Shown here: positions 29,448-54,781 of the stretch, piece after piece
Position numbering within the stretch: position 1 is the first letter of the stretch
How the letters are laid out: the number at the start of each line of letters is the position of its first letter
Assembly: GCA_964429555.1 (NCBI GenBank)
Contig: CAYSDD010000001.1
Location: 15,627 to 79,626 of the forward strand
Direction of reading: 5' to 3'
Source: an uncultured Syntrophaceae bacterium
Lineage (GTDB): Bacteria > Desulfobacterota > Syntrophia > Syntrophales > UBA2192
Length of the DNA: 64,000 nucleotides
Translations under genes and position numbers: made by a program
Notes under the pieces: generated by a model
What the model was told of the DNA's origin: nothing
Database searches by the model: none
The model's input: the letters and a program-made list of their open reading frames with translations, nothing else

Positions 29448-29552
29448 TGTTTTGTTCTCTATCTCCTTATTTTTCCTCCCTTCTTAACTTCCGGTTTTCC
29501 TGGTGACCGTCCTTTCTTGGTCCTTGACAAAGCCCCGATGCTTTGTTACGGG

Positions 29553-29725
29553 ATAACTATCCAAGGGGGTGGGCAGATGGAAGAGGGGTGAAAATCCCCC
29601 GCTGCCCCGCAGCCGTGATGGGAACGAAATCCCGATGAGCCACTGTCATGGTCACCATGATGGGAAGGCGGGAGAGTAGGCCGCCCTAAGCCGGAAGACT
29701 GGTCCATCCCGTTAGCCTCGAGGGA
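29553..29725 (+). promoter_or_regulatory. Cobalamin riboswitch 1
   Basis: GGTGAAAATCCCCCGCTGCCCCGCAGCCGTGA..., the B12 box GAGCCACTG, ...GGGAAGGCGG...AAGCCGGAAGAC. It ends just before the GAGGGAGG SD and the GTG of btuC. Confidence 0.85.
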
Positions 29726-31599: not shown

Positions 31600-31765
31600 A
31601 AAAGAGAAAGAAGCTGTCGGAGCGAGGAAGCCGGTCGAAATCCGGCGCTGCCCCGCAACTGTAGGCGGAGCGAAATCCGCAGCGTTTGCCACGGGTCACC
31701 GGCACAGGGGGCCCGGAAGGCGCGGAGAGTAGGGGGCCGCAAGCCAGTAGACTCGACCGACGGCG
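31600..31765 (+). promoter_or_regulatory. Cobalamin riboswitch 2
   Basis: GAAGCCGGTCGAAATCCGGCGCTGCCCCGCAACTGTA..., a B12-box variant TTGCCACGG, ...CCGGAAGGCGCGG...AAGCCAGTAGAC. It lies upstream of the TonB-dependent receptor. Confidence 0.8.
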
Positions 31766-34971: not shown

Positions 34972-35058
34972 ATGGACAGCACCCACATCCGTAATTTTGG
35001 CTTCTGGTTTAGCTATTATTTTTACGGACAGGTCTGCCCGTCGCTGAGGAGGACTTAG
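34972..35058 (+). CDS. Aromatic-rich leader peptide [28 protein letters not shown] (28 aa)
   Basis: This is the 3' part of track ORF 34786..35058. GAAGGAA lies 9 nt upstream of ATG 34972. Eight of ten consecutive codons are Phe/Trp/Tyr, and an intrinsic terminator follows immediately. Confidence 0.7.
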
Positions 35059-35082
35059 GCACGAAAGAATAAGCCGAACCAA

Positions 35083-35126
35083 AGCCATGGGTAGATCGAA
35101 AGACGCTGCCCATGGCTTTTTTGTTT
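35083..35126 (+). terminator. Attenuator terminator upstream of DAHP synthase
   Basis: AGCCATGGG-tagatcgaaagacgctg-CCCATGGCT followed by TTTTTTGTTT. It lies 66 nt upstream of the aroF ATG. Confidence 0.8.
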
Positions 35127-35191
35127 CTCCTTCTCCCCGGGCCATGAGGGCGGCAGCCATCATGGCCTTTTTCATTGGAGGTGACGGAATC

Positions 35192-36217
35192 ATGATTATC
35201 GTGATGAAGAAAAACGCAACGGACGGGCAGGTCGACCGGGTCGTCGAGTGGATCGAATCGGTCGGCTACCGTGCCCACCTGTCCCGTGGGACGGAAAAAA
35301 CGATTATCGGCGCTGTGGGGGATGCCCGCGGACGTGAGCAGATCAAGTCCGTCGCGCACCTGCCGGGCGTGGAAAGCGTCGTTCCCATCCTCAAGCCCTA
35401 CAAGCTCGCCAGCCGCGAGTTCCAAGAGAAAGACACGGTCGTGCGCGTGGGCGCGCTCGGGATCGGCGACGGCTCCTTCACCGTCATGGCGGGGCCCTGC
35501 GCCGTCGAGACGGAGGAGCAGCTCATGGAATGCGCCTGGGTGGCGAAGAAGGCGGGGGCCCACATCCTGCGCGGCGGAGCCTTCAAGCCCAGGACCTCGC
35601 CCTACAGCTTCCAGGGACTTGAGGAGGCGGGCCTCAAGCTCCTGAAGATGGTCCGCGAGCGGACGGGGCTCCCCGTGGTGACGGAGGTGGTCAACCCGGC
35701 CGACGTCGACCTCGTCGAGGCCTACGCCGACATCCTCCAGATCGGCGCCCGCAACGTCCAGAACTTCGCCCTGCTGAAGCGGGTCGGGCAGGCCCGAAAG
35801 CCCGTCCTGCTCAAGCGGGGCATGATGACGACCATCGAGGAGCTCCTCATGTCGGCCGAGTACATCCTCTCCGAGGGCAACGCCGATGTGATCCTCTGCG
35901 AGCGCGGCATCCGGACCTTCGAGACGGCCACGCGCAACACGCTCGACATCTCCGCCGTCGTCGTCCTCAAGCAGCTCTCCCACCTGCCGGTCATCGTGGA
36001 CCCGAGCCACGCGGCGGGTCACTGGAAGTACGTCGCCCCCCTGGCCCGGGCGGCCGTGGCCGTCGGGGCCGACGGGATCATCGTCGAGGTTCACCCCGAG
36101 CCCGAGAAGGCCGTCTCCGACGGGATGCAGTCCCTGAAGCCCGAGAAGTTCTACCAGCTCATGGAGGACATCGGGGTCCTCGAGAGGGCCATGCGGGAAG
36201 TGAGGACCGTGTCATGA
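35192..36217 (+). CDS. aroF: 3-deoxy-7-phosphoheptulonate (DAHP) synthase, type I-beta with N-terminal ferredoxin-like regulatory domain
   Basis: [26 protein letters not shown]... is an ACT/FL-like N-terminus, as in the Thermotoga-type enzyme. It is followed by [12 protein letters not shown]...[18 protein letters not shown] and IVDPSHA. Confidence 0.9.
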
Positions 36218-42898: not shown

Positions 42899-43746
42899 AG
42901 AACACCGGAACCCCCATCTCCCCCCCGGAGCGTTTCCCCATCGGCATCATCGGGGGCACGGGCGGCATGGGCCGCTGGTTCGCCGCATTCTTCGAGAAGG
43001 AGGGCCACCCGGTCATCGTCTCGGGAAAGGGCACGGGCCCGCGCCCGGACGAGATGGCGGCGTCCTGCCCCGTCGTCATCGTGAGCGTGCCCATCGGGGC
43101 GACGATTGAGGTCATCCGGCAGGTGGGCCCGCACATGAAGCGGGATTCGCTCCTCATGGACCTGACGTCCCTGAAGGCTGAACCGGTGCGGGCCATGCTC
43201 GAATCGTCGGTCTCGGAGGTCATCGGCCTGCACCCGCTGTTCGGCCCGGGAGTGCCCTCCCTGGAGGGGCAGAACGTCGTCCTCTGCCCGGCAAGGGGCG
43301 ACAGATGGCTCCCCTGGGTTCGGGATGTCCTTGTGAAAGGTGGCGCGAATCTAATCGAGACGACGCCGGAGCGACACGACGAGATCATGGCCGTCGTCCA
43401 GGCGCTCAATCATTTCGACACGATCGTCCTGGGCCTTGCGATCCGCCGAAGCGGCATTGCGCGGGAGGTCCTGGAAGCCTTTTCCACACCCTTGTTCCGG
43501 GGGAAACTGGCGATGATCGACAGGGTATTTTCCCATCCGGAACTCCATACGGAGATCATCACGGCAAACCCGCATGCAGCAGGGATGATCGATCTCTATG
43601 GGCAGATCCTTGACAGGGTCGGACGGGTTGCCATAGAAGGAAATGCCGCGGATCTGGCGGCACTCATGCGGCCGGAAGAACCCGATGAAAAAAACGTGAT
43701 CCCTGTCGTTACGTTGTCAGAAAGACGCGCTTCGGACCTGCCGTAA
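42895..43746 (+). CDS. tyrA: Prephenate dehydrogenase
   Basis: [18 protein letters not shown] is a Rossmann motif; ...LMDLTSLK...GLHPLFGP...[18 protein letters not shown]. The start ATGA overlaps aroC. Confidence 0.85.
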
Positions 43747-43775
43747 TCCTGTGGGAAACCCGGTCGGACAGGCCC

Positions 43776-44252
43776 ATGGTACGGCAGATCCTGTTATCGG
43801 GACCGGGGCAGCCGGCGGAAACCGTCCTGAAGGAGCAATTTCCGGATTCGGTTTCATCCTCCTGCAAACTCATTGACGATCTGGCCGGGCGGATCGCGGC
43901 GTTTCTCGACGGAGCCGATGTCCGTTTTACACTCGAGCATGTGCAAATCGATCTCTGCCCCCCGTTTCAGCGGAAAGTCCTTCTGGCCGAATACGGCATC
44001 CCGCGGGGTTCCGTGAGCACGTACGGGCGGATGGCGGCCCATCTGGGCATTCCCGGGGGCGCCCGGGCCGTGGGCAACGCGCTGGCGACAAACCCCTTTC
44101 CCATCGTCATCCCCTGCCACAGGGCGATCCGCTCCGACGGAACGCTCGGCGGATACCAGGGAGGGCTCGCCATGAAGCGGGCGCTGCTCATGCAGGAAGG
44201 GGTTGATGTCGACGAGAGGGGAAGGGTTGTGTCGCCGAAACTCTACTATTGA
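43776..44252 (+). CDS. ogt: Methylated-DNA--protein-cysteine methyltransferase (MGMT/Ogt family)
   Basis: VSTYGRMAAHLGIPGGARAVGNALATNPFPIVIPCHRAIRSDGTLGGY contains the PCHR active-site motif. Confidence 0.85.
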   Translation: MVRQILLSGPGQPAETVLKEQFPDSVSSSCKLIDDLAGRIAAFLDGADVRFTLEHVQIDLCPPFQRKVLLAEYGIPRGSVSTYGRMAAHLGIPGGARAVGNALATNPFPIVIPCHRAIRSDGTLGGYQGGLAMKRALLMQEGVDVDERGRVVSPKLYY

Positions 44253-44285
44253 GTGCAGGCTGGTGACCGGGGGCGCAAGCCGACC

Positions 44286-44393
44286 AGAGAAGGTAAGAAG
44301 GTGAGAGGGTAAGAACGTTGGATGAGCCGATAGCTGTCTTCACGCTCTCCGCTTCTCCAACCTTCCCACCTTCATACCCTCTTACCCTCTGCC
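44286..44393. repeat. Long imperfect hairpin with a purine-rich 5' arm and pyrimidine-rich 3' arm
   Basis: agagaaggtaagaaggtgagagggtaagaacgttgg pairs with ccaaccttcccaccttcataccctcttaccctct. It lies between the ogt stop and the trp promoter. Confidence 0.4.
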
Positions 44394-44469
44394 TTTGCAT
44401 CCGGGCATTTAGACTAGCCTGGGTGAAACCCTTTCCCGAAAGGGCCGCAAAGGGCGCAAATAAACCGGG

Positions 44470-44498
44470 TTGACAGGCGGCGGAAAGCTTGCTATAAG
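44470..44498 (+). promoter_or_regulatory. Sigma-70-type promoter of the trp leader
   Basis: TTGACA-N17-TATAAG, about 25 nt upstream of the leader ATG. Confidence 0.65.
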
Positions 44499-44521
44499 TG
44501 CGCTCAGTTGGAGAAAGAATA

Positions 44522-44599
44522 ATGTTCAGCGAGATCCTTTCGAAAAACAGCTGGTGGTGGCGCAACTTCATAGGAGGGGTTTGCCTGCTGCCGGTATGA
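44522..44599 (+). CDS. trpL: trp operon leader peptide MFSEILSKNSWWWRNFIGGVCLLPV (25 aa)
   Basis: Not in the ORF track. GGAGAAAG lies upstream, there are three consecutive TGG codons at 44552-44560, and an intrinsic terminator follows. Confidence 0.8.
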   Translation: MFSEILSKNSWWWRNFIGGVCLLPV

Positions 44600-44618
44600 C
44601 GTGAAGAAGTGAAATCCA

Positions 44619-44661
44619 GGCCGTGGGGGACCCCGGAGGTGCCCCACGGCTTTTTTGTTTT
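44619..44661 (+). terminator. trp attenuator terminator
   Basis: GCCGTGGGG-gaccccggaggtg-CCCCACGGC followed by TTTTTTGTTTTT. Confidence 0.85.
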
Positions 44662-44683
44662 TAGCGTATTGCAGGAATCAGGA

Positions 44684-44710
44684 GGCCGTGCCGGGAGCAC
44701 GGCCTTTTTC
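44684..44710 (+). terminator. Second tandem hairpin + T-run downstream of the trp attenuator
   Basis: GGCCGTGC-cggga-GCACGGCC followed by TTTTTC. Its arms share GCCGTG/CACGGC with the first terminator. Confidence 0.6.
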
Positions 44711-44718
44711 ATTTCAGG

Positions 44719-44756
44719 GATTAAATCCCCCTCTTTCCCCCTTTGGGAAAGGGGGA
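44719..44756. repeat. C-run/G-run hairpin repeat, copy a
   Basis: gattaaatccccctctttCCCCCTTTgggAAAGGGGGa lies immediately upstream of the trpE RBS. Confidence 0.5.
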
Positions 44757-44774
44757 AGCACGGAAGGAAGAAAA

Positions 44775-46271
<1,497 letters not shown>

Positions 46272-46277
<6 letters not shown>

Positions 46278-46339
46278 AATCCCCCCTTCCCCCCTTTACG
46301 AAAGGGGGGCATGGAGACATCCCCCTTTAAAAAGGGGGA
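46272..46339. repeat. C-run/G-run hairpin repeats, copies b and c (tandem)
   Basis: gattaaaatccccccttCCCCCCTTTacgAAAGGGGGG (46272-46309) is followed by catCCCCCTTTaaAAAGGGGGa (46318-46339). Copy b starts at the trpE stop codon. Confidence 0.5.
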
Positions 46340-46378: not shown

Positions 46379-46966
46379 ATGTACCTCATGATCGACAACT
46401 ACGATTCCTTCACCTACAACCTCGTCCAATACCTGGGCCAGCTGGGCTGCGAGGTGGCCGTGCACCGCAACGACGAGATCACCCTCGAGGACATCGAGGC
46501 GATGGCCCCCGAGGCGATCTTCCTTTCGCCGGGACCCTGCACCCCGAAGGAGGCGGGGGTCACCGTCGAGACGATCCGCCGGTTCCACGAACGGATCCCC
46601 ATCCTGGGCATCTGCCTGGGGCACCAGGCCATCGGCTACGCCTTCGGTGCCGAGGTCGTCCGCGCCGAGCGGCTCATGCACGGCAAGACCTCACCCGTCT
46701 ACAACGACGGCCGGACGATCTTCAGGGGGCTGCCCAACCCGCTCACGGCGGGCCGGTATCATTCGTTGCTCGTCCGCCGGGATACGCTTCCCCCCTTTCT
46801 CGAGGTGAGCGCCGAGACCGAGGAAGGTGAGGTCATGGGGCTCCGTCACAGGCATTTCCCCCTCGAAGGGGTCCAGTTCCACCCCGAGTCGGTCCTCACG
46901 CCGAACGGCAAACGAATCTTGAAAAACTTCCTGGAGATCGTCTCCGGGAACGGGAAAGGAGCATAG
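46379..46966 (+). CDS. trpG: Anthranilate synthase component II (glutamine amidotransferase)
   Basis: [23 protein letters not shown]...SPGPCTP...[10 protein letters not shown]...VQFHPES. Confidence 0.9.
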
Positions 46967-51891: not shown

Positions 51892-53253
51892 TTGAAACGA
51901 ATCCTGATTGTCGATAATGACGAGCCGGCACGGACCGCGCTGGCCGCCTTGCTTCGCGATGAAGGGTACGAGATTGATGAAGCGACCACCGAGATCGAGG
52001 CCATGCAGCTCGTGGAGCGACGCATCCCGGATCTGGTCGTTTCAGATCTGTGCGCGCCAGACTGCTTCTGCGTCGGCCTGCTGCACTGGATCAAGGAGCA
52101 CCACCCCCACCTGGACGTGATCATCGTCACGGCCTTCGGATCCATCGACTGCGTCGTCAAGACGATCAAGATGGGCGCCCTCAACTATGTCATGAAGCCC
52201 GTGAACAACGGGAAGTTCCTCGAGATCGTCCGCGAGGCCCTGCACCGGCGTGAGGGCGGGATGAAATCCCTGCGACGGGTCAATGAGCCTTACTGCTACC
52301 TCGTCGACGAGGTGGTGGGCGTCTCGCGCAGCATGGAGCAGGTCCTCAAGACGGCCCTCCGGGTCACCGACGTCGACAGCGGCATTCTCATCCGCGGCGA
52401 GAGCGGCACGGGCAAGGAGCTCATCGCCCGGATCCTCCACAACCGCAGCACCCATCGGCGCAACCGGGAATTCGTCGCCATCAACTGCGCCGCCATCCCG
52501 GGCGAGATCCTCGAGAGCGAACTCTTCGGCTCCGTGCGGGGGGCCTTCACGGGGGCGACCCAGACCCGCAAGGGTCTCATCGAGGTGGCCGACGGGGGGA
52601 CGCTCTTCATGGACGAGATCGGCGACACGTCGCCGCAGTTCCAGTCGAAGCTGCTGCGGGTCATCCAGGAAAAGGAGATCCGGCGGGTGGGTGACACGGC
52701 GTCGCGCTCCGTCGACGTGCGCATCGTGGCCGCCACCAACCGGGATCTCAAGAAGATGATCGGCGAAGGCACCTTTCGGGAGGACCTGTACTACCGGCTG
52801 AGCGTCATCGACATCATCGTCCCGCCGCTGCGGGAGCGCAAGGAAGACATCCAGCCCCTCGTGGACTACTTTCTCCAGGACATCAACGGCAGGCTCGGCA
52901 CCGGGATCGAGGGAGTCTCCGCGCAGGCCATGGCGGTCCTCATGGCCTACCCCTGGCCCGGAAACGTCCGGGAGCTGCGGAACAGCCTGGAGAGGGCCGC
53001 TCTGCTGTCGGGCCACAAGATGCTCAAGCCCGAGGACTTCCCGCTGGCCTTCGAGCACTACCTCCGGCTCACGCAGAAGGACAGGGACGATGAGATCATC
53101 CCCCTGAAGGAGATGGAACGCCGCCACCTGCTCAAGGCCATGCAGAAGTACAACTACAACCAGAAGCTCGTGGCGAAGAAGCTCGGCATCGGCTACACGA
53201 CGCTCTGGCGAAAGCTCAAGGAATCCGAGAAGGACATCAACTCGACGCCCTGA
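51892..53253 (+). CDS. Sigma-54-dependent response regulator (NtrC/bEBP: REC + AAA+ + Fis-type HTH)
   Basis: The start is TTG. The REC domain is KRILIVDNDEPARTAL...DLVVSD. The AAA+ domain carries Walker A GESGTGKE, the GAFTGA loop (RGAFTGA) and LFMDEIG. The C-terminal HTH is KLVAKKLGIGYTTLWRKL. No histidine kinase gene is adjacent. Confidence 0.85.
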   Translation: MKRILIVDNDEPARTALAALLRDEGYEIDEATTEIEAMQLVERRIPDLVVSDLCAPDCFCVGLLHWIKEHHPHLDVIIVTAFGSIDCVVKTIKMGALNYVMKPVNNGKFLEIVREALHRREGGMKSLRRVNEPYCYLVDEVVGVSRSMEQVLKTALRVTDVDSGILIRGESGTGKELIARILHNRSTHRRNREFVAINCAAIPGEILESELFGSVRGAFTGATQTRKGLIEVADGGTLFMDEIGDTSPQFQSKLLRVIQEKEIRRVGDTASRSVDVRIVAATNRDLKKMIGEGTFREDLYYRLSVIDIIVPPLRERKEDIQPLVDYFLQDINGRLGTGIEGVSAQAMAVLMAYPWPGNVRELRNSLERAALLSGHKMLKPEDFPLAFEHYLRLTQKDRDDEIIPLKEMERRHLLKAMQKYNYNQKLVAKKLGIGYTTLWRKLKESEKDINSTP

Positions 53254-53288
53254 GAGCGTGCGCTGAGCGAACGCTCCGTTTCGTTTTG
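53254..53288 (+). terminator. Weak terminator-like hairpin after the regulator gene
   Basis: GAGCGT-gcgctgagcga-ACGCTC followed by cgTTTcgTTTTg. Confidence 0.4.
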
Positions 53289-53337
53289 AAACACCCCCGC
53301 CCCGCCGCGGCCCCCCATCGGGGCCCCGCAGCCGATG

Positions 53338-53350
53338 TGACCCGCGGTCA
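53338..53350. promoter_or_regulatory. Palindrome, candidate enhancer (UAS) site
   Basis: TGACC-cgc-GGTCA lies about 100 bp upstream of the -24 element. A TGTGAC word recurs at 53336 and 53380, and an AT-rich tract with an IHF-like cATCAGaggcTTA (53386-53398) lies between them and the promoter. Confidence 0.3.
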
Positions 53351-53449
53351 GTTCACGCCGGAAAACAAAAATCTTTTTCTGTGACATCAGAGGCTTAAGC
53401 CGCCGTCGGCCGGCTTGGACCCGCCGCTTGCCGCAGGGTGGATTCCCCG

Positions 53450-53465
53450 TGGCACGGCCGTTGCC
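53450..53465 (+). promoter_or_regulatory. Sigma-54 promoter upstream of nuoA
   Basis: gTGGCACGgccgTTGCC is a near-perfect match to TGGCACG-N4-TTGC. The -12 element lies 42 nt upstream of the nuoA ATG. Confidence 0.7.
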
Positions 53466-53505
53466 ATCCATCGCTCATCCTCGAAAAGGGGCAACACGAA
53501 ACGGG

Positions 53506-53849
53506 ATGACGGCTTCCACCTCCATCTCCATCTATCTGCTGCTGGTCGTCGGGTCGGCGGCGCTGATCCTTCTGCTCTCCCATTGGGTCGGGCGCCGTCC
53601 CCTGACCCCCGAAAAGGACGTGCCCTACGAATGCGGCATGCCCCCCGCCGGGAGGGCGGGCACGCAGTTTCCCGTCCGGTTCTACAAGATAGCCCTGCTC
53701 TTCGTCGTTTTCGACGTGGAAATCGTCTTCCTGTACCTCTGGGCCGTCGTGGTCCGGGATCTCGGCCTCTTCGGGCTCGTCGAGATGTTCGTCTTCATCG
53801 CCGTCCTGCTGGCGGCCCTCGTCTACGTCTGGCACAAAGGAGACCTGCA

Positions 53850-53859
<10 letters not shown>
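53506..53859 (+). CDS. nuoA: NADH-quinone oxidoreductase subunit A
   Basis: ...[14 protein letters not shown]...[22 protein letters not shown]...; 117 aa with three TM helices. Confidence 0.9.
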
Positions 53860-54325
<466 letters not shown>

Positions 54326-54329
<4 letters not shown>

Positions 54330-54781
54330 ACCTCGACGCCCTCCGGGAGCGCTTCGGCACGGCCCTCGGCGAGCCGGCAACGTTTCGCGGCGAGACGACC
54401 CTGACGGTGGATCGCAACAGCCTTGTCGCGCTCTGTGAATGCCTACGCGATGACGAAGCCCTTGCCTTCGATTTCCTTGCCGACCTGTGCGGCGTAGACC
54501 GCCATCCCGCCGCGCCGCGCTTCGAGGTGGTCTACCACCTGTATTCGGTGCGGCACGGGCACCGTCTCCGGGTCAAGGTTGCACTCGAAGAGGAAGACCC
54601 GGTCATCGACTCCGTCACGGGGGTCTGGGAGACGGCGGACTGGCACGAGCGGGAGTGCTTCGACCTCTTCGGGATCCGTTTCCGCAATCACCCCGACCTC
54701 AGGCGCATCCTGCTGCCCGACGATTTCGAGGGGCACCCGCTGCGGAAGGACTTCCCCCTGGAGGGGATGGACAGGACATGA
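54326..54781 (+). CDS. nuoC: NADH-quinone oxidoreductase subunit C
   Basis: ...[11 protein letters not shown]...VVYHLYS...[34 protein letters not shown]...; the start ATGA overlaps nuoB. Confidence 0.9.

Follow-up and report, generated by a model that had tools for sequence, protein, structure and literature searches.

The window analyzed here, a 64,000-nucleotide (nt) stretch of contig CAYSDD010000001.1 from an uncultured Syntrophaceae bacterium, carries a long cluster of aromatic amino acid biosynthesis genes, and the element under study is the leader region directly upstream of trpE. On the + strand the gene order is aroF (3-deoxy-D-arabino-heptulosonate 7-phosphate synthase), aroB, pheA (chorismate mutase-prephenate dehydratase), aroD, aroE, aroA, aroK, aroC, tyrA, and ogt, followed by the trp leader, trpE, trpG (46379-46966), trpD, trpC, trpF, trpB, and trpA. 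The leader contains a short open reading frame (ORF) with three consecutive TGG codons, preceded by promoter and Shine-Dalgarno sequences and followed by two hairpins, T1 and T2, each running into a U-tract. Most of these parts had been described in the original prediction: its promoter (TTGACA-N17-TATAAG) is present at 44470-44498, and the first hairpin with its T-run and the second with TTTTT are both as described. The 25-codon ORF with three TGG codons is also present, but had been given with a coordinate slip (it starts at 44522), and the gap from the first T-run to the second hairpin is 21 nt rather than 23. Close relatives carry GGAG or GGA at the equivalent position before the leader ORF. 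The RNA is described below as six segments numbered from 5′ to 3′, with 1:2, for example, denoting the helix between segments 1 and 2; T1 is 3:4 and T2 is 5:6 (Table 1).

Table 1. Coordinates of features in and around the trp and aro leaders (positions are those of the window).
Feature	Position	Strand	Basis or remark
-35 hexamer TTGACA	44470-44475	+	Read in sequence; spacer to -10, 17 nt
Extended -10 TGcTATAAG	44490-44498 (TG 44490-44491, TATAAG 44493-44498)	+	Read in sequence
Shine-Dalgarno GGAG	44510-44513	+	8 nt 5′ of leader ATG; read in sequence
trpL-like leader ORF, 25 codons plus TGA, MFSEILSKNSWWWRNFIGGVCLLPV	ATG 44522, TGA 44597-44599	+	Sequence and homologous ORFs
Three TGG codons, leader codons 11-13 (WWW)	44552-44560	+	Read in sequence
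Segment 1, UGG codons and adjoining 3′ bases; 5′ arm of 1:2 hairpin	44552-44569	+	Fold
Segment 2, end of leader ORF, GGGGTTTGCCTGCTGCCG; partner, segment 1 or 3	44576-44593	+	Fold and alignment
Segment 3, T1 5′ arm and part of T1 loop, GGCCGTGGGGGACCCC; partner, segment 2 or 4	44619-44634	+	
Segment 4, T1 3′ arm (..CCCCACGGC) and U-tract TTTTTTGTTTTT	44638-44662	+	Fold and alignment
Part of segment 4 proposed to pair with segment 5 in the ON state, CACGGCTTTTTT	44645-44656	+	
Segment 5, purine-rich run and T2 5′ arm, CAGGAGGCCGTGC; partner, segment 4 or 6	44679-44691	+	
Segment 6, T2 3′ arm GCACGGCC and U-tract TTTTT	44697-44709	+	Sequence and fold
Hairpin T1, arms GCCGTGGGG and CCCCACGGC, then TTTTTTGTTTTT	44620-44628, 44642-44650, then 44651-44662	+	
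Hairpin T2, GGCCGTGC, loop CGGGA, GCACGGCC, then TTTTT	44684-44691, 44697-44704, then 44705-44709	+	
trpE (anthranilate synthase component I), first of trpE-G-D-C-F-B-A	44775-46277	+	Pfam Chorismate_bind, Anth_synt_I_N
aro (Phe/Trp/Tyr) leader ORF	34972-35058	+	
aro leader T1	35081-35119	+	
aro leader T2	35140-35167	+	U-tract to 35172
aroF start, ATG (MIIVMKK)	35192	+	
CCCTTT-N(2-8)-AAAGGG, before leader promoter	44429-44444		
CCCTTT-N(2-8)-AAAGGG, between T2 and trpE	44739-44753		
CCCTTT-N(2-8)-AAAGGG, between trpE and trpG	46292-46306		
CCCTTT-N(2-8)-AAAGGG, between trpE and trpG	46323-46336		

Using a purpose-made finder on both strands of the window, tandem hairpin-plus-T-run sites were identified at two places only, the trp leader and a second leader upstream of aroF (35081-35167). 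The region 44505-44720 folded with an energy of −87.3 kcal/mol (z = −3.3 against shuffled sequences). A generic promoter and terminator scan of the window listed neither the leader promoter nor T1 nor T2. The promoter and T1 were missed because of the pattern rules of the scan, which require a −10 hexamer ending in T (here G) and loops of ≤8 nt (the T1 loop is longer), and T2 was probably passed over when its stem was extended into its own T-run. The omissions are a consequence of these rules and no evidence against the promoter or the terminators. The Rfam Trp_leader family (RF00513) had no match at the gathering threshold in the whole window and none at an E value of ≤10 in 43700-45000, and none of the Rfam attenuator families matched at either threshold.

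To identify relatives, one genome per GTDB species was searched with the TrpE protein and the best 80 loci were taken; all came from Syntrophales, Syntrophaceae, or Smithella metagenome-assembled genomes, with TrpE identities of 63 to 93%. In nearly all of them, a short ORF containing consecutive Trp codons was found 120 to 270 nt upstream of trpE. The leader architecture could be assessed at 78 loci, and at 72 of these a Trp-codon leader ORF was combined with two hairpin-plus-U-tract elements; both the ORF and the pair of hairpins, whose presence in relatives the original prediction had put forward as a check, are therefore conserved. Among the 65 leaders that were aligned, the UGG run comprised two codons in 2, three in 39, four in 23, and five in 1, and at least 6 U residues were present within 8 nt after the stem of both hairpins in 63. 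The stem core GCCGUG/CACGGC was common to T1 and T2 over the whole order, and T2 was usually preceded by an A-run. The T2 loop ranged from 3 to 12 nt, and the spacer between T1 and T2 (20 to 37 nt) was conserved in neither length nor sequence. At one locus (L031) neither leader nor hairpins were identified, and at another (L064) the leader and T1 were gone and a T2-like hairpin alone remained, directly after a TTGACA. In the closest relative among the matches listed (L001, 9745-9915), the T1 U-tract was degenerate (GGCTTGTTTGTTTG) and T2 was intact. DNA operator palindromes for a repressor were also considered as an account of the hairpins and were ruled out by inference, given that the half-site spacing of T1 differs from that of T2 and that the T2 loop varies in length.

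The leader promoter was likewise conserved. Most of the aligned relatives had TTGAC(A) approximately 82 to 100 nt 5′ of the UGG run, and when scored as TTGAC-N16-19-TA.... with at least four of six matches to TATAAT, 40 of the 65 leaders contained a promoter, most of the others having ..CTGnTAg.. at the same spacing. Thus, the trp operon has its own promoter across the order. The nesting of the trp genes within a larger operon, suggested earlier, receives no support from this; between the aro genes and the trp leader lie, in addition, the ogt gene and a hairpin of 105 nt. The same comparison bears on whether there is a regulatory element here at all, rather than an ORF and hairpins that arose by chance or terminators that belong to the upstream ogt gene. 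The silence of the generic scan and of Rfam could be read in favor of this explanation. However, the ORF, promoter, 1:2, 2:3, T1, and T2 were kept 5′ of trpE throughout the order, whichever gene lay upstream, and the only two tandem sites in 64 kb both follow leaders with aromatic codons. This explanation is extremely improbable and is effectively refuted by conservation.

The secondary structure of the leader was assessed in the alignment of 65 sequences. RNAalifold, run without prompting, predicted three hairpins: 1:2, which joins the UGG codons to the end of the ORF, T1, and T2. The specificity of helices was controlled by pairing each arm with slid partners and by comparing double-sided changes with those in shuffled alignments. 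The helices of the OFF set (1:2, 3:4, and 5:6) were 92.2% paired against 40 to 62% with slid partners, with 18 pairs changed on both sides compared with 10.9 ± 1.8 in shuffles, and the main 1:2 helix was 90.1% paired. The two helices of the ON set (2:3 and 4:5) were together 92.8% paired against 47 to 57% when slid. Within this set, 2:3 was 92.2% paired and included four pairs with both sides changed. In the window it extends over ∼17 bp (44576-44592 with 44619-44634; −25.6 kcal/mol) and joins GGAGGGGUUUGUCCACCGCU, the last leader codons, to AGCCGUGGAGACCUCUC, the T1 5′ arm and loop; the antiterminator alternative that the original prediction had left to be sought by folding is therefore present. 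Participation of both partners in 2:3 explains why the tail of the peptide (..EGFVHR or ..GGVCLLP) and the T1 loop are conserved. Mean helix energies were −18.7 kcal/mol for 1:2, −21.7 for 2:3, −23.0 for T1, −16.9 for 4:5, and −18.3 for T2; in the window, T1 had an energy of −28.3 kcal/mol and T2 one of −17 to −22 kcal/mol, varying with the number of flanking bases folded.

Equilibrium folding was dropped as a test of switching because T1 and T2 always win at full length, as they do in E. coli; the switch was instead assessed by the order in which helices can preempt one another and by findpath barriers. For the ON state, the bases covered by a ribosome stalled on the UGG codons were masked and the transcript was ended before the T1 3′ arm. 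Under this mask, and before segment 4 is made, 2:3 was the minimum-energy fold in every sequence inspected. The estimated barrier for refolding from 2:3 to T1 averaged 15.1 kcal/mol, whereas the same calculation for the change from 2:3 to 3:4 in E. coli trpL (benchmark sequence with 100% identity to RefSeq genomes) gave 5.8 kcal/mol. Segment 2 has the stop codon at its 3′ edge; a terminating ribosome would therefore cover segment 2, while one stalled at UGG would leave it open.

These features correspond to those of the E. coli and Salmonella trpL attenuator (RF00513). There too, a short leader is translated, its consecutive UGG codons fall within segment 1, segments 1 and 2 form a hairpin, and the end of the ORF is part of a 2:3 antiterminator that excludes a 3:4 intrinsic terminator; the stop codon is likewise at the 3′ edge of segment 2. 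The leader described here could not be matched to RF00513 by sequence or structure even at an E value of ≤10, and would work alike without being a member of that family. It also differs in the Trp run (two codons in trpL, three to five in 63 of the 65 leaders aligned here), in a much longer antiterminator (∼17 bp, −22 kcal/mol), and in a second terminator 20 to 37 nt downstream with a 4:5 helix able to couple it. The classical Trp-codon attenuator for trpE proposed in the original prediction is well supported by the conserved leader ORF, 1:2 hairpin, 2:3 antiterminator, and T1. Judged from sequence and its conservation, the element is very probably a ribosome-mediated (leader-peptide) Trp transcription attenuator of trpEGDCFBA. 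Transcription would begin at TTGACA/TGcTATAAG and yield a leader ORF with its three UGG codons within segment 1. When Trp is plentiful, the ribosome would reach UGA and cover segment 2, allowing 3:4, or T1, to form, and polymerase that escapes T1 would encounter 5:6, or T2, as a second chance to terminate. When charged tRNA-Trp is scarce, the ribosome would stall on UGG and leave segment 2 free to form 2:3 before segment 4 emerges, and when translation does not occur, 1:2, 3:4, and 5:6 would all form. Termination at T1 or T2, and its dependence on Trp, are what this arrangement predicts.

The second hairpin is linked to the first by a further complementarity. The T1 3′ arm and U-tract of segment 4 (CACGGCUUUUUU) can pair with the A-run and T2 5′ arm that make up segment 5 (AAAAAGGCCGUG; CAGGAGGCCGUG in the window). 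Cross-pairing between the two hairpins had been raised in the original prediction, and as pairing of segment 4 with segment 5 it is real and conserved in 65 of 65 aligned relatives. This 4:5 helix was the minimum-energy fold of the stretch from segment 4 to segment 5 in all 65 sequences, with a constant register, and its core of seven pairs was 98.5% paired. Among the core pairs only 120:174 varied, with A-U in 45 sequences, G·U in 13, and G-C in 7, and it was paired in every sequence. At its base, where it is complementary to segment 4, the T2 stem was nearly constant, whereas the loop-proximal pair 176:187, outside 4:5, showed compensated variation (A-U in 41, C-G in 8), and the T2 loop and the T1-T2 spacer varied freely. 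Both 4:5 relative to T2 and 2:3 relative to T1 were ∼1.3 kcal/mol weaker than the terminator that they would preempt, and both are transcribed first. The estimated barrier for refolding from 4:5 to T2 was 9.0 kcal/mol on average and 10.5 kcal/mol in the window. A further complementarity was observed between segment 3 (AGGCCGTG, 44618-44625) and segment 6 (CACGGCCT, 44698-44705); it is perfect and would permit a nested fold of 3:6 around 4:5, and it follows from the likeness of T1 and T2.

The six segments can therefore adopt an OFF set of three hairpins or an ON set of two shifted helices, each set at least 92% paired across the 65 sequences, and both sets are compatible with the same conserved sequence at the energies given above. 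From this we infer an order of folding and a relay between the two terminators. Segment 4, left unpaired by 2:3, would capture segment 5 as it emerges; the resulting 4:5 helix would leave segment 6 without a partner, and T2 would fail to form. The OFF state would then be the product of two termination efficiencies, and the ON state would be spared that cost. A Trp attenuator of six alternately complementary segments, with two serial intrinsic terminators coupled in this way, is the best explanation of the leader and is held with a slight preference. That T2 is coupled to the decision at T1 through 4:5 is given an even chance or marginally better.

The conserved arms and variable spacer also bear on whether T2 acts on its own account. 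The original prediction had raised a second decision point as one role for T2, and there are precedents for serial attenuators with one sensor apiece, such as tandem riboswitches, tandem T-boxes, and the pyr operon. If T2 were an independent decision point, a sensor of its own (a protein, a ligand, or a second small ORF) would have to act between T1 and T2. With a spacer of only 20 to 37 nt that is unconserved and contains neither an ORF nor an Rfam match, no second sensor fits there, and such a sensor was ruled out on this basis. An independently regulated T2 is not favored and appears very improbable.

A counterpart of the two-hairpin arrangement was identified in the aro leader, which lies 9.6 kb upstream of the trp leader. 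The two can be aligned collinearly through an ORF ending in ..GxVC.., segment 2, T1, a U-tract, T2, and a second U-tract, and by eye an internal C·C mismatch of 2:3 occurs at the same position in both. On this sequence evidence the aro leader is taken to be a paralogue of the trp leader with the same two-terminator design. The regulatory codons differ, being a mixture of Phe, Trp, and Tyr in aro, and the stem core is CCAUGG in all four aro arms compared with CCGUGG/CCACGG in trp. A metagenome scan with AroF, combined with the genome loci, yielded 64 distinct aro leader sequences, all of which had the T1-plus-T2 layout. The central 4:5 pairs were Watson-Crick in 51 of these, wobble in 10, and mismatched in 3, and mean values were −15.5 kcal/mol for the 4:5 state and −22.5 kcal/mol for T2, with a barrier of 7.6 kcal/mol; relative to 4:5, T2 is thus stronger than in the trp leader. 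Segment 2 of the aro leader (GGTCTGCCCGTCGCT) can, by eye, also pair with the region of the leader start codon (GTGATGGACAG), which would be a 1:2 helix of another kind than that in the trp leader. The long ORF called as aroF from 35087 begins inside T1, and the gene call is corrected here to a true start at 35192. That a single stalling event, relayed through six segments, disables both terminators, and that this design operates throughout the Syntrophales in both trp and aro leaders, is about as probable as its opposite.

Several observations weigh against the relay. At full length and equilibrium, T1 together with T2 was the most stable arrangement even under the stalled-ribosome mask, and both steps of the switch would therefore have to rely on kinetic trapping. 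Of the 12 pairs in 4:5, five join a U-tract to an A-tract, and any adjacent terminators flanked by A- and U-tracts would have them. The seven leaders with G-C at 120:174 appear, judging by their sequences, to form one clade and thus to represent approximately one event, so that independent covariation for 4:5 is weak and its support comes from conservation and compatibility, not repeated compensation. Within the aro family of 64 leaders, the search for 4:5 covariation likewise returned conservation only, together with counterexamples: in L043 and L143, T1 has switched to G-C and T2 has kept A-U, creating an A·C mismatch in 4:5, and a similar A·C mismatch was noted by eye in L121. In L043 and L143 a 4:5 helix of 12 to 13 bp remains despite the mismatch. 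The second hairpin was missing, the first alone being present, in five trp lineages (L025, L041, L051, L057, and L063), and in some aro leaders (L128-L134, L144, and L160) 3 to 5 nt separate the T2 stem from the U-run. Conservation of 4:5 could also follow from an origin of T2 as a copy of T1, and every related sequence came from a metagenome-assembled genome or a metagenome contig.

In a rival explanation, a classical Trp attenuator is followed by an uncoupled fail-safe T2, which would form regardless of the ribosome and lower expression in both states, its likeness to T1 being left over from a duplication. T2 is a canonical terminator, equilibrium favors it over 4:5 by ∼1.4 kcal/mol in trp leaders and ∼7 kcal/mol in aro leaders, and its loss from several lineages suggests that it is dispensable; the weak covariation of 4:5 and the mismatch in three aro leaders also speak for it. 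However, an unregulated terminator would lower induced and basal expression to the same extent, and the base of the T2 stem can pair with segment 4 in all 65 trp leaders and in 61 of the 64 aro leaders. This complementarity has been kept across an order in which TrpE proteins are 63 to 93% identical, while the T2 loop, apical pairs, and spacer have drifted. Refolding from 4:5 to T2 also faces a higher estimated barrier than the one calculated in this way for E. coli trpL, where it is sufficient. An uncoupled T2 descended from a duplication of T1 is a serious rival to the relay, although it is considered unlikely.

Neither the relay nor a fail-safe function would apply if T2 were mainly not a terminator at all and served instead as a 5′ stabilizing hairpin of trp mRNA that has been read through or processed, or as the 3′ end of a small leader RNA acting in trans. 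In Sinorhizobium, rnTrpL is a leader-derived small RNA of the latter kind. Small RNAs of attenuator origin have been described (PMC6614838). The T2-like hairpin that L064 keeps alone, and the poor U-tract directly after T2 in some aro leaders, would agree with such a role. In the trp leaders, however, T2 has an A-tract upstream, and at least six of the eight residues directly after it are U in 63 of 65, which is the signature of an efficient intrinsic terminator, and we know of no target or partner for such an RNA. A principal role for T2 other than termination is accordingly regarded as improbable.

Leader-peptide attenuation is a textbook mechanism, and the textbook cases have a single terminator. 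The nearest precedent for a chain of six segments is the his attenuator of Salmonella and E. coli, for which Johnston et al. reportedly proposed in 1980 that A:B, C:D, and E:F alternate with B:C and D:E. There, as proposed here, the position of one ribosome is relayed through two successive alternative helices. The regulatory codons and sequences are unrelated, and only E:F terminates in his, C:D being a plain hairpin, whereas in the trp leader the middle hairpin, 3:4, is a full terminator followed by UUUUUUGUUUUU. Serial attenuators are known from tandem riboswitches, tandem T-boxes, and the three PyrR attenuators of the Bacillus subtilis pyr operon. They resemble the present leader in that multiple intrinsic terminators multiply the tightness of the OFF state, but each of theirs has its own aptamer or binding site, whereas the trp leader has a single sensor, its ORF, and only complementary arms are conserved between its two terminators. 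Tandem terminators with related stem motifs in a 5′ leader were also described for the rimP-leader, which has a second terminator in some Gammaproteobacteria (Naville and Gautheret 2010, PMC2965389). In contrast to the trp leader, the rimP-leader has no leader peptide, its stem motifs are inverted, and its extra terminator lies upstream with an antiterminator hairpin of its own. In full-text literature searches, no description of leader-peptide attenuators in Syntrophus, Syntrophales, or Deltaproteobacteria was found, nor one of a leader-peptide attenuator with two terminators under one leader ORF, the nearest being the remark on the rimP-leader.

Other features of the neighborhood were also recorded. 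The ogt-like gene between tyrA and the trp leader (43776-44252) encodes a methylated-DNA-protein-cysteine methyltransferase domain and interrupts a cluster otherwise devoted to aromatic biosynthesis. The imperfect hairpin of 105 nt (44288-44390), with arms of 47 nt that are 74% complementary, is located 3′ of the ogt stop codon and 5′ of the leader promoter. It is not followed by a T-run, and it was the source of weak microRNA-like Rfam matches, the only weak ones in the region; it could be an insertion resembling a repetitive extragenic palindrome or a miniature inverted-repeat transposable element, or a stability element. The mini-palindrome CCCTTT-N(2-8)-AAAGGG occurs in four copies where none would be expected, all intergenic and within the trp cluster (Table 1), and in close relatives other small palindromes (CCCTCTCCC..GGGAGAGGG) are found between T2 and trpE. 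Two further ORFs, 44188-44712 on the − strand (174 amino acids, antisense) and 44318-44473 on the + strand, had no Pfam match and were treated as spurious. Over the whole window, Rfam identified only two cobalamin riboswitch aptamers (RF00174), both on the + strand (29538-29721, 76.8 bits, and 31624-31754, 74.7 bits), and nothing in the trp leader region. Directly downstream of trpA is a gene for a sigma-54-dependent response regulator (51892-53253), followed by NADH dehydrogenase subunit genes (Oxidored_q6 and Complex1_30kDa; region 51892-54781).

Taken alone, the attenuator is of an ordinary kind, from an order that has received little study, and classical attenuation of trp and aro operons is now documented for the Syntrophales (formerly Deltaproteobacteria). 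The coupled double terminator would be new among leader-peptide attenuators if the relay holds. It would then represent an RNA-only coupling of two terminators to one sensor, in which the tightness of the OFF state is squared and full induction is kept, a principle that could be useful in designing synthetic RNA switches. The fixed stem sequences of both terminators across the whole order would also be accounted for.

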